Part shown: piece after piece, positions 29,212 to 42,277 of the stretch
How positions within the stretch are numbered: position 1 is the stretch's first letter
Layout: the number at the start of each line of letters is the position of its first letter
Virus record (IMG/VR): IMGVR_UViG_2529292911_000009
DNA from: a virus
Taxonomy: Duplodnaviria > Heunggongvirae > Uroviricota > Caudoviricetes
Length of the DNA stretch: 44,421 nucleotides
Reading direction: 5' to 3' (one strand)
Translations under genes and position numbers: made by a program
Notes under the pieces: generated by a model
Told to the model about the DNA's origin: nothing
The model's input: the letters and a program-made list of their open reading frames with translations, nothing else
Database searches by the model: none

Positions 29212-29408
29212 TGCTAAAACAAACTGAAAGTAATATACCGGACTTGTAAAGGAACGATAGAATAATTATTGGATTAAACCCTGACTCAATCCAGATTTCA
29301 TAGACAACAACTACGGACTAATCATCACAGTCATGTTTGATAGACTTAGTCCACATTGGGTGAGGGTTTACGGCGTTTTCACTAATAATTTATCGTCCAA
29401 GCTATACA

Positions 29409-29801
29409 CTACTGCCCTGTTTTAACGAAGTTTTTAAAGGAAACAACTGCCTGATAGGGGTTTGGTTGACAGCCAAACATATTATCGCAAAAAGGCTTGA
29501 TGAAAATTCTTGAGGATCCATCTTCATTTGGCATTTTACTCACTTGATAAGCGAGGAATGGACTATTTGGAGAGGGATTATAAGTGGAAATTAGCGTGTC
29601 TGTCGCCGTTTGAATTTTCCATGAGGAATTATTAGCCAACCAGAATTGCGCTCGTTTCCAATAAAAGTCACATTGCTTTTCATCATTACATGTTAGTGGC
29701 TTCATTGCTTCTGCTTTCAACGCTGGATCGACCTTTGCTGCACACCCTCCCAACATTACTGTTGCAATCATTACACCTGCGACTAAAACAAGTTTCTTCA
29801 T
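29409..29801 (-). CDS. lipoprotein (moron candidate)
   Basis: Signal peptide MKKLVLVAGVMIATVMLGG-C with lipobox, Cys-rich mature domain, AT-rich codon usage unlike neighbours, terminator downstream. Confidence 0.6.
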   Translation of the reverse strand: MKKLVLVAGVMIATVMLGGCAAKVDPALKAEAMKPLTCNDEKQCDFYWKRAQFWLANNSSWKIQTATDTLISTYNPSPNSPFLAYQVSKMPNEDGSSRIFIKPFCDNMFGCQPNPYQAVVSFKNFVKTGQ

Positions 29802-29944
29802 CTCCCTGCCCCATCAATAAAAGTTCGGTTCTCTAATAACTAGAGTTAATCAACGGAAAAAACGCCGAAGCGGGTTAAGTGCGGGTGCGTTGAGGATGCC
29901 TGACACATCAGAGGTGGCGAGGGATTTCTCCCCCGCCAGGTCTC

Positions 29945-30100
29945 TTACTCCTCAGGTTCGTAAGCTGTGAAGACAGCGACCTCCGTCTGGCCGGTTCGGA
30001 TTCGTACCTCGCAGAGGTCTTTCCTCGTTACCAGTACCGTCACTATGACGGTTAAACAGATGACGATCAGGGCGATTAACATCGCCTTTTGCTGCTTCAT
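29945..30100 (-). CDS. hok: Hok/Gef-family type I toxin
   Basis: MKQQKAMLIALIVICLTVIVTVLVTRKDLCEVRIRTGQTEVAVFTAYEPEE is a typical Hok (close to hokD/relF as recalled); an in-frame upstream extension to 30157 resembles mok. Confidence 0.85.
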   Translation of the reverse strand: MKQQKAMLIALIVICLTVIVTVLVTRKDLCEVRIRTGQTEVAVFTAYEPEE

Positions 30101-30300
30101 AGCCTGCTTCTCCTTGCCTTTCGGCACGTAAGAGGCTAACCTACATTTGTGAGACATAGATTGGGCCTCAGATTAATGTTAAGCGTCTTGCAGGACGCGT
30201 AATGTTAACTGGGGCTTTTCTCTATCTGCCTTTTGGTGTTCATGCCCGAGGCAGATAGCCTCAAGCACCCGCAGCAATTCTACTTAACTCTCCTTTTCCC
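30101..30300. other. hok mRNA leader with long hairpin and probable antisense Sok region
   Basis: Inverted repeat tctatctgcc...ggcagataga at about 30222-30262 in the expected leader position. The Sok promoter was not pinned down. Confidence 0.4.
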
Positions 30301-30360
30301 GCAAACCGTTTTTGCTCACCATGATAAGTCGTTATTGTAATTAATTGACATAACGATTAG

Positions 30361-31256
30361 TCAAAACTCAATTTTTTGCGCTGGTCTTGCATTTAATATC
30401 CAACATTCTTGATGAGTGTGGTGCGCAATCAATAAATTTTGTAGTTGTGTTTTTTTGGCTTTATAATTTAACTCATTTGTCGTATCAATTATCCAATTCC
30501 CTGTCCCCGAAGAAGCCAGTGCCATGAGTTTATTACACTCTGCATGCATATTAATTATCTCACCAAACATATCTGTTTTTGTTTTTTTATTCACAAAGTT
30601 AGTAAAAATACCAGCATGCTTATAAGAATCCATTACAGTATAACGGCCATCACCATCTATATCAGAAGGTTTTGACATCCATTTAAAAACATGAAGGAGA
30701 AAAATATTGGCCGTCCAAGGAAATTCATCTCCATCAAGAAACGTTTCAGTAGTCGCTATACTCAGACTCTCAGTAAGATTAGTCGCCCCAATTAAAACAA
30801 CCTCAGGCTCGCCATCCTTTCTTTTACCCGCCCCAACAAAATTGAACGTACCTGCATAACACTGTCCAAAATAAACAATAGCATTGTTTAAATTAGGTGC
30901 TCCTTTTAAAGCCTTGAGAAGTTGATGAGGAGTAATAGGATTTTTTGCATCCAGTCCTTGTGGGCAACCATGACCAGTAACAAACATTACTATGTTATTG
31001 TAGTTATTATCACGCAAGTCATTAAAGAAATCTGCTGATGCTTTTGACGCATAAGGATACTTCGAGGCTGATGAAAAAAATCATCAAAATTCCTGTTAGG
31101 GCTGTCAATATATATTGATATGTCTCGTGGATTTATACCGGCCTTCTCAAGACATAGCACGCCAAAAACAATATCCAAAACGTGGCGCGATTCAACTTCT
31201 TCTTTAGAACGAGGCAAAAACATAACCCATTTCGTACGCTCAGACCTAAGGCTCAT
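30361..31256 (-). pseudogene. caspase-like (clan CD) cysteine peptidase homolog, interrupted by a 1-nt indel in an A7 run
   Basis: ORFs 30990..31256 and 30361..31017 are one gene in two frames. Adding one A at plus 31074-31080 gives a continuous protein of about 298 aa with strand-helix alternation and His-Gly (IVMFVTGHG) and Cys (AIVYFGQCYAG) dyad strands. Low GC. Confidence 0.6.
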
Positions 31257-31296
31257 ACATATCCTTATGATTCGAATGTTTTAAGTTAAAATTTTG

Positions 31297-31590
31297 TTAA
31301 TATTTAGGAGGCATTGCATTACTGAAAGATGGTGGCTTTGGTATATCAATAAAGTAAAAAAGCTCATCGATGCTTAAATGTTCAGTAATTTGGGTGGACG
31401 TTATTTGCCCTCTTTCATTCAAACCAAATATTTCATCGCCAGTTTTCAGAAAAAACACCACTTCAAATGTTGTGGTTACTTCATGCGCATAAGATTTGAA
31501 CAGCATCCACTGCCCGAGATTCACACACTCTTTTACTGAATCAGAAGTATCAGGTAACGCTGACGACTGTAGCCCTGTGAATTTCATCAT
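31297..31590 (-). CDS. hypothetical protein, upstream partner of the caspase-like gene
   Basis: 97 aa, AAGGA RBS, AT-rich, preceded by a hairpin terminating the upstream operon. Confidence 0.5.
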   Translation of the reverse strand: MMKFTGLQSSALPDTSDSVKECVNLGQWMLFKSYAHEVTTTFEVVFFLKTGDEIFGLNERGQITSTQITEHLSIDELFYFIDIPKPPSFSNAMPPKY

Positions 31591-37399: not shown

Positions 37400-37935
37400 T
37401 TAAGGAGTTCTCCACGGGTGAGGTGGAGTGCGTGCGCCGGACACGGGTGAGCATCCGGCACTGACAGTTTACTGAAAGGATATTTCCATGAAAAGTCAGA
37501 CCATAACGCGAAAGCGCACGGCGAGGTAGCTGGTTCATAGATAGCCTGTCGTTAAATTTTCGTCGGCCGTGCGCTTCCGGTTGTGGCACTCCGCGAAATG
37601 GCGCGGCGGTAAGTATGGCGGGGTTATTCCTTCCCCGTTGAGGACACCTGGTTGTCAGGTTGACCATACGCTTAAGTGACAACCCCGCTGCAACGCCCTC
37701 TGTTATCAATTTTCTGGTGACGTTTGGCGGTATCAGTTTTACTCCGTGACTGCTCTGCCGCCCTTTTTAAAGTGAATTTTGTGATGCGGTGAATGCGGCT
37801 AAGCGCACGCGGAACAGTTAAAACCAAAAACAGTGTTATGGGTGGATTCTCTGTATCCGGCGTTAATTGTTAACTGGTTAACGTCACCTGGAGGCACCAG
37901 GCACCGCATCACAAAACTCATTGTTGAGGGCGCGA
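37400..37935. other. structured GC-rich noncoding region with nested hairpins and a long-range 15-nt inverted repeat
   Basis: No credible ORF. 14-bp hairpin 37509-37522 / 37566-37579; exact inverted repeat ttttgtgatgcggtg (37777-37791) / caccgcatcacaaaa (37902-37916); GTTAAC-TG-GTTAAC palindrome. Confidence 0.5.
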
Positions 37936-40907: not shown

Positions 40908-41111
40908 ATGAGCAGCTTATTTTTAACCGAAGATGAATTGCTAATATTAACGGGCTGCAAATATGCAAGCCACCAGCGAAAATGGTTAATGGAAAACGGG
41001 CTTCCGTTCTATACCAATCGTAGTGGCAAACCGATTGTCAGCCGGGATCTATTTACCTGCAATAAAACTTTACCACCACGCGAGGTAGAGCCGAATTTTG
41101 GTGCGATCTGA
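40908..41111 (+). CDS. excisionase-like protein
   Basis: 67 aa ORF immediately upstream of, and translationally coupled to, the integrase gene. Confidence 0.55.
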   Translation: MSSLFLTEDELLILTGCKYASHQRKWLMENGLPFYTNRSGKPIVSRDLFTCNKTLPPREVEPNFGAI

Positions 41112-42135
41112 TGGGAAGACGAAGGAAAAATCCTGAACACGAAAAATTACCTCCAAATGTATACCCAAATAAATATAGTTATGTATGGAAACCAACATCC
41201 AGAGAATCTGTCACACTAACCGCCATCAAGGATGGTTTAGCTGCTTTATGGAAAAAGTATGAGGAAACTGTAAATAATCGCGATCGTGCAATGACATTCG
41301 GTCGCTTGTGGGAAAAATTCCTCGCCAGCGCCTATTACAGTGACCTTAGTCCAAGAACACAAAAAGATTATCTGCAACATCAAAAAAAGTTGCTTGCCGT
41401 ATTCGGTAAGGTACCAGCGGATTCCATAAAACCAGAACACATCCGTCGATACATGGACAAAAGAGGGGAGCAGAGTAAAACGCAAGCCAACCATGAAAAA
41501 AGCAGTATGTCCCGTGTTTACAGTTGGGGGTATGAGCGAGGGTACGTGAAGGCTAACCCATGTGCAGGTGTAAGTAAATTCAAGGCCAAAAACCGCGAAC
41601 GATATGTAACCGACAAAGAATACCAGGCAGTATTAAGCGTTGCACCTCTTCCTGTTTTTATCGCAATGGAAATTGCCTATCTGTGTGCAGCGAGGGTTTC
41701 CGATGTGTTATCGCTGAAATGGGAACAGATTGGAAACGACGGGATATTCATCCAGCAAGGGAAACCGGAAAAAAACAGATAAAAGCATGGAGTCCACGAT
41801 TACAGGCAGCGATCGAAAAAGCAAAACAGTTACCAAAATCTGCCTATGTGATCAGCAATCAATACGGCAACCGATATATGTACAAAGGCTTTAACGAAAT
41901 GTGGGTAGATGCAAGAAATCGTGCTGGAAAAATTTCAGGTATTTTAACCGACTTCACCTTTCATGATCTGAAGGCGAAAGGAATTTCAGACTATGAAGGA
42001 AGCAGCCGGGATAAGCAACTTTTCTCTGGTCACAAAACCGAAGGGCAAGTGCTAATCTATGACAGGAAGGTTAAAGTTTCACCAACACTTGATGTCCCGT
42101 TACCTGAAAATATTCCAAGAAAATATTCCAAGTAA
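41111..42135 (+). pseudogene. int: tyrosine integrase, frame interrupted by a single-base deletion in a short A run
   Basis: ORFs 41111..41782 and 41683..42135 are one integrase in two frames. Restoring one A near 41762-41764 gives IFIQQGKTGKKQIKAW, a typical integrase motif. True pseudogene or sequencing indel. Confidence 0.75.
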
Positions 42136-42187: not shown

Positions 42188-42277
42188 TGGCGGAGAGAGG
42201 GGGATTTGAACCCCCGGTGGAGTTGCCCCCACTCCGGTTTTCGAGACCGGTCCGTTCAGCCGCTCCGGCATCTCTCC
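42188..42277 (-). tRNA. serU: tRNA-Ser (anticodon CGA), serU-type
   Basis: 90 nt with long variable arm, anticodon loop CUCGAAA, CCA encoded. 5' end GGAGAGATGCCGGAGCGG. Confidence 0.85.
42203..42249. repeat. att-type direct repeat, right copy (inside intact tRNA-Ser)
   Basis: Matches 151-197 with 3 mismatches; two of them form a compensatory base-pair change in the tRNA variable arm. Confidence 0.75.

Follow-up and report, generated by a model that had tools for sequence, protein, structure and literature searches.

The window, a 44,421-nt stretch of Caudoviricetes virus DNA (IMG/VR record IMGVR_UViG_2529292911_000009), carries on its minus strand an open reading frame of 51 codons plus stop, with the ATG at 30100 and the stop codon at 29945-29947 (ORF listing), encoding the Hok-type protein MKQQKAMLIALIVICLTVIVTVLVTRKDLCEVRIRTGQTEVAVFTAYEPEE (first residues MKQQKAML, last residues AYEPEE). 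A longer frame, mok, starts 57 nt upstream of the hok ATG and shares frame and stop codon with hok. Both frames are embedded in a predicted 414-nt mRNA, and a putative antisense RNA, Sok, is located on the opposite strand. The features are given below, position n of the mRNA corresponding to window position 30271-n.

29945-30100, minus strand: hok toxin gene, 51 aa plus stop, with a Shine-Dalgarno (SD) sequence GGAG at 30110-30113 (Pfam PF01848, NCBIfam Hok subfamily, RefSeq name hokD on an identical gene)
29959-29962, minus strand: TACG motif, read from the sequence, formed by the TAC codon of Hok Tyr47 and the G after it; candidate TadA A-to-I site at 29961
29945-30157, minus strand: mok reading frame, in frame with hok and giving a 70-aa Mok-Hok product if read through (ORF list; 89% identical to MokW of 933W; 57-nt offset)
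30277-30305, minus strand: candidate hok promoter read from the sequence, with -10 TAGAAT (30277-30282), a 17-nt spacer and a weak -35 TTTGCG (30300-30305); mRNA start at about 30269-30270
29857-30270, minus strand: predicted full-length mok-hok mRNA, 414 nt (5' end from the alignment with the R1-type +1 and the start of the Rfam model, 3' end from a T-run after a short hairpin)
30259-30270, minus strand: tac (translational activator), mRNA nt 1-12, GGGUGCUUGAGG (from folds; identical in eight hokD-clade loci)
30209-30217, minus strand: ucb, or anti-SD box, mRNA nt 54-62, AAGCCCCAG (from folds; the tac/ucb stem is in the Rfam consensus structure)
30165-30169, minus strand: mok SD region GAGGC, mRNA nt 102-106, 8 nt upstream of the mok AUG (G102-C106 invariant in nine loci)
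30132-30136, minus strand: dcb (downstream complementary box) GCCUC, mRNA nt 135-139, pairing with the mok SD in the trimmed folds (invariant in nine loci; Rfam consensus hairpin)
29917-29938, minus strand: GC-rich 3' UTR hairpin, mRNA nt 333-354, a 10-bp stem in all folds
29883-29895, minus strand: fbi (fold-back inhibition), CCUCAACGCACCC, mRNA nt 376-388, forming 12 pairs and one bulge with tac in the minimum free energy (MFE) fold; covered by the inverted repeats I4 and I6
29857-29872, minus strand: weak terminator, a 3-bp CGC/GCG stem with a UUCG loop followed by UUUUUU (read from the sequence and the folds)
30114-30142, plus strand: putative Sok promoter, -35 TTGCCT (30114-30119), 17-nt spacer, -10 TAACCT (30137-30142), read from the sequence at the position of the R1-type TTGCGC-17-TATCCT
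30149-30219, plus strand: putative antisense RNA Sok of about 71 nt, covering by complementarity the start codon and SD of mok together with the leader upstream (coordinates taken over from sokW, a misc_RNA annotated in 933W)

The interval 29945-30300, to which a previous reading of the sequence without database searches (hereafter the sequence-only reading) had assigned the locus, covers the ORFs and the leader hairpins, but cuts off the candidate hok -35 hexamer and leaves outside the terminator and the whole 3' UTR with fbi.

Toxin gene and its relatives

The 70-aa Mok-Hok product matched the Pfam profile PF01848 (HOK_GEF) over its full length (profile positions 1-42/42) with E=5.2e-23 and 80.8 bits, the cut-off being 22, and the 51-aa Hok matched the NCBIfam Hok subfamily with E=1e-12 and 47.7 bits, under the strict cut-off of 73 set for that model. 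By alignment, Hok is 98% identical to HokD of K-12, 90% to HokW of 933W, 92% and 96% to two additional hokD-type copies and 43% to Hok of an R1-type plasmid. Twenty columns are invariant, including the core TRK-LCE-R-R-G-EV-F-YE, and those shared with the R1-type Hok are C15, T25-R26-K27, L29-C30-E31, R33, R35, G37, E40-V41, F44 and Y47-E48. A hydrophobic stretch, AMLIALIVICLTVIVTVLV, is found in the N-terminal part, in accordance with the layout of the Hok/Gef family (about 50 aa, a hydrophobic N-terminal helix and a conserved core). The clear Hok toxin announced by the sequence-only reading is therefore confirmed by the full-length Pfam match and by a protein one residue off K-12 HokD; the alignment proposed there as a check, against hokD/relF and the R1-type Hok, retrieved the conserved residues whose absence had been named as the refuting outcome.

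The residue in question is V22, where K-12 HokD has alanine, the RefSeq gene name being shared. In a screen of diverse Hok peptides 42 out of 45 were toxic, HokD among them (10.1101/2025.08.07.668861), and by analogy we infer that the V22 variant (A22V with respect to K-12) would also act by damaging the inner membrane. As to the TACG motif, A-to-I editing by TadA at such motifs in hokC/D/E recodes Tyr to Cys, and editing of hokD has been described (PMC5630033, PMC12214031).

Megablast found the 601-nt region 100% identical in four E. coli chromosomes, where the RefSeq gene name is hokD, and a much larger part of the window (17801-42399, 24.6 kb) was 99.955% identical to the CV839-06 prophage, which is integrated by tRNA-Ser/mtfA. 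The 449-nt locus (29857-30305) was present, at a coverage of at least 80%, in 3950 of the 5426 complete E. coli genomes, i.e., about three quarters, with a median of 2 and a maximum of 10 copies per genome. It was also found in 102 phage records and, at lower identity, in 1599 plasmid records. Full-length alignment was obtained with 933W, an IncY P1-like plasmid and other chromosomal copies and, more distantly, with an R1-type IncF plasmid.

Among phage relatives, the hokW/mokW/sokW locus of 933W shares 94.3% DNA identity over 441 nt with the window copy, as well as an in-frame mok at a 57-nt offset, identical tac and fbi sequences and identical Sok promoter hexamers, and its annotated 71-nt sokW maps to window positions 30149-30219. 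The two copies differ in the N-terminus of Mok and in the C-terminus of Hok (FTAYEPEE here, FVDYESEK in HokW). They also differ in location, the 933W module being found at 58.4-58.7 kb beside the tail-region (tail-fibre) end, whereas the window copy lies between replication genes and DUF968-RusA-Q. The function of hokW-sokW was shown experimentally (PMC8621323), that of the window copy being predicted.

In K-12, hokD (relF) of the Qin prophage has a similar neighbourhood, with DicF/dicB on one side and DUF968 (ydfU) and Q (ydfT) downstream, and like the window copy it keeps the 3' UTR with fbi. The gene analysed here indeed combines its identity to K-12 HokD with the PGAP name hokD and a position in a Qin-like lambdoid prophage, as is characteristic of hokD orthologues. 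On the contrary, the K-12 locus is truncated: relE adjoins it, and farther than about 15 nt upstream of the hok ATG the similarity is lost. K-12 thus lacks the native promoter, tac, ucb, Sok and the mok start, which the complete window copy retains; in keeping with this, the match in a K-12-sized genome (H74) covers query positions 1-258 only, 57% of the locus.

The archetype, hok/sok (parB) of plasmid R1, agrees with the window copy in gene order and in its RNA elements (tac, metastable hairpin, ucb, mok SD, dcb and fbi), with Sok promoter hexamers at the corresponding place, and in the R1-type sequence the pairing of the mRNA ends was predicted by the same algorithm as in the window copy. 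In addition to the lower identity of its Hok, R1-type hok/sok differs in the Sok/target hairpin, which is 16 nt longer in the window, where the Rfam alignment shows an insertion. The R1 locus is carried by a plasmid, and its post-segregational killing is proven. Taken together, the locus is a complete hokD/hokW-type module, already annotated and very common, hence an ordinary and already known one.

Leader, antisense RNA and predicted folding

A leader frame with its own SD overlapping hok, by which hok/mok/sok loci are recognised, is present here as the 70-aa ORF preceded by a GAGG sequence 8 nt upstream of the mok ATG, and the in-frame mok-like extension described by the sequence-only reading stands as such, the ORF ending at the hok stop. 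Among nine loci compared, the mok-hok offset was 57 nt in six, 58 nt in two and 56 nt in one, where a 19-codon mok ends at the hok start. In R1, according to the published numbering (mok AUG 116-118, hok AUG 174-176; derived from PMC9841398), the two start codons are 58 nt apart and mok and hok are in different frames, in contrast with the window copy, while in the R1-type plasmid sequence that was fetched mok is in frame at 57 nt. Any special status of the 70-aa product was thus rejected, six of the nine loci being in frame and the frame varying between loci; the frame of mok relative to hok is no defining feature of the locus type. The variable offset fits the published conclusion that translation of mok, and not its product, is what matters (PMC9841398).

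A scan of positions 29700-30500 for consensus promoters and terminators did not report any. The candidate hok promoter scores 8/12, under the scan threshold, and its -10 hexamer shares alignment columns with TACAAT of the IncY plasmid and TATGAT of the R1-type plasmid. The -10 of the Sok promoter matches the consensus in only three of six positions and the promoter is likewise under the threshold; being all sub-consensus, both promoters and the terminator were placed by homology. The Sok promoter hexamers and their spacer are identical to those of 933W. Since we take Sp5 and 933W to be near-identical, the promoter data available for Sp5 were carried over to the 933W hexamers. In Sp5 the sokW promoter was experimentally active, and mutating it unmasked toxicity (PMC8621323). 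As to the prediction of a Sok promoter, suggested as a check by the sequence-only reading, candidate hexamers are present at the homologous position, in a sub-consensus promoter that the scan did not report. At the other end of the transcript, the terminator stem, 5 bp long in K-12 and strain 0-4 (CCCGC-TTCG-GCGGG), lacks two G in the window, and given this shortening the real 3' end may differ from the modelled one.

The long upstream inverted repeat reported by the sequence-only reading was found with arms at 30211-30231 and 30249-30269 (21 nt, 76% complementary) and corresponds to the tac stem in the 5' leader of the hok mRNA. Another long hairpin, at about 30165-30210, corresponds to the putative Sok terminator together with its target hairpin. 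In its predicted fold (-31.1 kcal/mol, z=-5.1) Sok has a single-stranded 5' tail of about 13 nt, a long hairpin and a U-rich tail. The Rfam model RF01794, named 'sok', matched positions 30270-30095 on the minus strand over its whole length (1-157/157) with E=5.9e-27 and 120 bits (gathering score 59). As the match is to the minus strand and extends down to the hok AUG, what the model describes is the hok-mRNA leader in sense orientation; it does not represent the Sok transcript.

For the 414-nt mRNA an MFE of -168.4 kcal/mol (z=-7.64) was predicted, which none of 100 shuffled sequences attained. In the full-length MFE structure, tac (nt 1-12) is paired with fbi (nt 376-388) through 12 pairs, which are also present in the centroid fold, and nt 56-62 of ucb are paired with the mok SD region (nt 100-106). 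When the RNA is trimmed to nt 1-368 or 1-372, tac (nt 1-8) is instead predicted to pair with nt 54-60 of ucb, and the mok SD with dcb (nt 135-139), both stems being included in the Rfam consensus. In a nascent RNA of 40 nt a metastable hairpin is predicted, in which tac is sequestered by nt 19-29. These three predicted states are exactly those published for R1 (PMC9841398), where the full-length mRNA is closed by tac/fbi with ucb on the mok SD, the truncated form has the tac/ucb and SD/dcb stems, and the nascent RNA folds into a metastable hairpin.

The tac/fbi pairing, which the sequence-only reading had put forward for prediction, held in silico, the end-pairing being predicted in all nine homologous loci folded, R1-type plasmid included. 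A 9-nt perfect inverted repeat (I6) was rejected as stand-alone evidence for it, as chance alone would yield about 0.5 such repeats in 531 nt; support for the pairing comes from its position, its extension to 12 pairs, its conservation and the MFE folds. The helix is invariant within the hokD clade, and its covariation consists of a single compensatory pair with respect to the R1 type, U4-A385 here against C3-G there. This was read by hand, because MAFFT misplaces the R1-type fbi by two columns and helix 1 reads 'other:1' instead of a compensatory pair. When the structure was projected on the nine-sequence alignment, 91.2% of the cells were paired, against 36-44% in slid controls, a difference inflated by the structure having been derived from the window sequence itself. 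Pairs changed on both sides numbered 21, compared with 3-5 in the slid controls, and none of 500 shuffles reached this value. The GC-rich 3' UTR hairpin (helix 16 of the alignment) has six of its ten pairs changed on both sides. By analogy with R1, where mutation of the last stem-loop of the truncated mRNA abolished function (PMC9841398), this hairpin is likely to be the stop point and the protective hairpin for 3' exonucleolytic trimming.

Prophage neighbourhood

According to the CV839-06 annotation, hok is flanked on one side by early/replication-side genes (DUF977, DUF4014 and others) and on the other by DUF968-RusA-Q, and is co-oriented with both groups. The immunity region, DicF and dicB lie farther on. 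DicF, dicB, ydfB/C, DUF968 and Q are all features that this prophage has in common with Qin. The assignment of the toxin to a nin-like region is in agreement with this arrangement, the site being the nin-equivalent position of a lambdoid prophage, as for hokD in Qin of K-12. The early-right transcription, with which hok is co-oriented, would converge on the putative Sok promoter. The integrase ORF of the prophage is split into frames of 223 and 150 aa, a possible sign of a defective prophage.

Upstream of hok, the gene at 30361-31256 encodes a member of a protein family of about 298 aa, 70%-identical representatives of which match the Pfam family Peptidase_C13 (clan CD, legumain/caspase fold) with E of about 3e-6, above the gathering score. 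The window version gave no direct match in Pfam, NCBIfam or PADLOC and the family is seen only through these homologues. In the window the gene is split into frames of 88 and 218 aa, as one base is missing, relative to CV839-06, from an A-run near 31073; CV839-06 in turn is one base short in a T-run at 30450. The 'caspase-like' label given to this neighbour by the sequence-only reading appears defensible for a clan-CD (legumain/caspase-type) peptidase homologue, but the gene as it stands in the window is interrupted by a homopolymer frameshift. A 130-aa lipoprotein and a 97-aa ORF retrieved nothing in PADLOC, Pfam or NCBIfam, and PADLOC-DB v2 did not contain any match for Mok-Hok, the peptidase-like neighbour or the lipoprotein.

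The same reading had also marked the segment as a toxin/defence hotspot. In a small and unsystematic sample of 11 related contexts, made up of the window and ten others, a known toxin-antitoxin or defence gene was found beside hok in four, namely relBE in K-12, an AAA_13 ATPase recognised by PADLOC as PDC-S06 (1067 bits), RmrA/RmrT (RmrTA) and an AbiH-family protein; the remaining contexts have unknown genes, IS200 or nothing at this place. The variable flanks of hok are suggestive of a cargo slot and lend the hotspot modest support, which has to be set against the lack of genome-wide enrichment of hok beside defence systems (10.1101/2025.08.07.668861). A stronger proposal, in which the conserved hokD module would mark a site of lambdoid prophages where toxin-antitoxin and defence cargo is swapped, with the peptidase-like neighbour as a new defence candidate and Hok maybe as an effector timed by induction, is regarded as speculative and unlikely.

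Regulation and role of the module

Our preferred reading, which we hold with high confidence, is that the hok/mok/sok locus of the window is an intact type I toxin-antitoxin module belonging to the hokD/hokW clade and that a lambdoid E. coli prophage of the Qin/DicF type carries it in its nin-equivalent region, with R1-like control and a likely link to induction. The behaviour of the window copy is here inferred from that of its R1 and hokW-sokW relatives. A weak promoter would give rise to a stable 414-nt mok-hok mRNA, silenced while nascent by the metastable 5' hairpin and, once completed, by the pairing of tac with fbi in the 3' UTR, with ucb masking the mok ribosome-binding site. Slow exonucleolytic trimming from the 3' end would then remove fbi, allowing tac to re-pair with ucb and the mok SD to move into the SD/dcb hairpin, and the trimmed mRNA would be translatable and also accessible to Sok. 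The short-lived Sok, of about 71 nt and transcribed from the opposite strand, would pair across the mok start region and lead to destruction of the duplex. Once the supply of Sok ends, ribosomes would translate mok and, coupled to it, hok, and the 51-aa Hok would insert into the inner membrane and collapse it. For R1 it is documented that the mRNA is processed at its 3' end, that RNase III cleaves the duplex with Sok and that cells are killed once Sok decays (PMC9841398).

As to the role, hokW-sokW of Sp5 is an active type I toxin-antitoxin in which HokW, located in the inner membrane, arrests growth and is neutralised by sokW expressed from its own promoter, with partial dependence on RNase III and Hfq (PMC8621323). 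After mitomycin C treatment sokW RNA disappears, HokW is made in a RecA-dependent manner and growth arrest occurs about 40 min earlier; the locus doubles phage release, which is halved by its deletion (PMC8621323). By analogy, the supply of Sok in the window prophage would stop at induction, and Hok would advance growth arrest and help lysis and phage release, with post-segregational killing or abortive infection as possible additional roles. This transfer is an extrapolation, since hokW sits elsewhere in its phage, beside the tail end and not in the nin region. The induction/lysis role taken from hokW-sokW is regarded as the most likely one; its fit is no better and no worse than that of stabilisation or abortive infection, the functions put forward by the sequence-only reading.

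That the module is active but serves mainly for prophage addiction or for abortive infection against superinfecting phages, and not for the lysis brought about by the prophage itself, is a conceivable reading, although we consider it rather unlikely. It draws on the stabilisation of plasmids by R1 hok/sok and on a 42% drop in T4 plating efficiency with R1 hok/sok on a high-copy plasmid (as cited in PMC8621323), on the roughly fourfold enrichment of hok genes in prophages (10.1101/2025.08.07.668861) and on the four of 11 contexts with a toxin-antitoxin or defence gene beside hok. Direct evidence for such a role exists for none of the prophage hok loci, no PADLOC model matches the protein, no genome-wide association of hok with defence was found, and the sole functional study of a close relative pointed to a pro-phage role at induction (PMC8621323). 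Moreover, the chromosomal hokA/B/C loci, as summarised in the preprint cited above (10.1101/2025.08.07.668861), showed neither post-segregational killing nor activation by rifampicin. This last observation speaks at the same time for a different reading, namely that the locus, though structurally complete, is silent or decaying, as in the case of the chromosomal hok loci of laboratory strains, and is carried along by a cryptic prophage without serving any present role.

The silent reading would also account for the weakness of the signals, with a Sok -10 at three of six positions, a weak hok -35, no promoter or terminator in the consensus scan of the region and a terminator stem 2 nt shorter than in K-12 and strain 0-4, as well as for the split integrase ORF and the frameshifted neighbour. 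Nevertheless, the ORFs are intact, every RNA element is present and the predicted folds are R1-like; the Sok promoter is that of 933W, whose Sp5 counterpart is active (PMC8621323); HokD belongs to the Hok peptides toxic in the screen; and the high conservation across 3950 genomes argues for selection. A silent locus is thus regarded as improbable. As for a chance ORF accompanied by chance hairpins, with no Hok locus at all, short ORFs and 9-nt inverted repeats do arise by chance, but this explanation is refuted, its probability being negligible, by the Pfam (E=5e-23) and Rfam (E=6e-27) matches, by the single residue separating the protein from K-12 HokD and by thousands of annotated orthologues.

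The intact module, as preferred here, carries little weight as a discovery, since RefSeq already names the gene, and its phage counterpart, annotated along with 933W, was studied by experiment in 2021. For annotators, a match to the Rfam 'sok' model marks the sense strand of the hok mRNA. The full-length locus is a better template than the truncated K-12 copy for the native regulation of hokD, and the variable genes flanking the hok module are a possible place in which to seek prophage-borne defence genes.

Prophage context

Features noted elsewhere in the prophage were the following:
37712-37763, plus strand: DicF, an antisense RNA matched in Rfam at 76.7 bits
26221-26530, minus strand: four phage tRNA genes, between the Q and holin genes
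41111-42135, plus strand: integrase frame
42188-42277: tRNA-Ser (CGA) attachment site region

DicF is full-length and sits in a dicB-type operon of the same prophage that carries the hok module, thus identifying the prophage as Qin-like. The tRNA cluster is made up of Gly-TCC, Thr-TGT, Lys-TTT and one tRNA with a CAT anticodon, assigned as Met by ARAGORN versus Ile by RefSeq. The integrase frame, which adjoins the attachment site at tRNA-Ser (CGA) beside mtfA, is broken into ORFs of 223 aa and 150 aa; the integrase of the nearly identical prophage of E. coli CV839-06 is likewise frameshifted according to RefSeq, with a one-A difference between the window and that assembly at 41761. Judging from the sequence, the prophage may be incapable of excision.

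Coding and antisense features of the hok module

Motifs and regions noted within the module were:
29959-29962, minus strand: TACG motif at the Hok Tyr47 codon
30003-30006, minus strand: second TACG, spanning Val32/Arg33
30098-30157: mok start region, compared with the equivalent region of the related loci L002 and L004-L010

TACG is the TadA editing motif; the first copy falls at Tyr47, for which Tyr-to-Cys recoding is reported in hokC/D/E (PMC5630033, PMC12214031), and editing at the second motif would be synonymous. The frame of the leader ORF mok relative to hok is not constant among these closely related loci, the offset between the two start codons being 57 nt (in frame) in six loci, 58 nt in two and 56 nt in one, where mok consists of 19 codons and terminates at the hok start. 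The Rfam model RF01794 ("sok antitoxin") matched at 30095-30270 on the same strand as the hok mRNA, ending at the hok AUG, and therefore on the strand opposite to the actual Sok RNA (≈30149-30219, plus strand); name and matched strand are thus at odds, a pitfall for automatic annotation.

Genes flanking hok and a possible cargo slot

The surroundings of the module comprise:
29857-29872, minus strand: hok terminator hairpin (CGC-UUCG-GCG)
29409-29801, minus strand: predicted 130-aa lipoprotein, signal peptide with terminal lipobox LGGC
30361-31256, minus strand: clan-CD peptidase-like gene, by homology
Slots in relatives of window 29400-31300 (each record's own coordinates): L008 3904-6300; L007 1190-2924; L014 3315-4223; L003 2347-2873

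The terminator stem has 3 bp only, because two G found in K-12 and strain 0-4 are absent from the window, and transcription into the lipoprotein gene, immediately downstream of hok (≈55 nt past the terminator), is possible. The lipoprotein matched no family in Pfam, NCBIfam or PADLOC; its position is held by rem in K-12 and by a YgiW/YdeI-like gene in the Stx2 phage 933W.

On the other side, the "caspase-like" cassette of the sequence-only reading does correspond to a homologue of ≈298-aa clan-CD proteins (Peptidase_C13/legumain, caspase-like), but its frame is broken in the window into ORFs of 88 aa and 218 aa, since an A-run near 31073 is shorter by one base. The CV839-06 copy has a T-run shorter by one base at 30450 and a 275-aa CDS. 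These homopolymer differences may be either sequencing errors or genuine pseudogenisation. A PADLOC search of this gene gave no match.

The same reading had called the segment a toxin/defence hotspot. In related lambdoid prophages, the cargo adjoining the conserved hokD module differs among the 11 contexts compared, some carrying PDC-S06 (AAA_13 ATPase), RmrA/RmrT, an AbiH-family protein or relBE, others genes of unknown kind or IS200. These differences suggest, though in a sample of only 11 contexts, that the site beside hokD is a variable slot for toxin-antitoxin/defence cargo.
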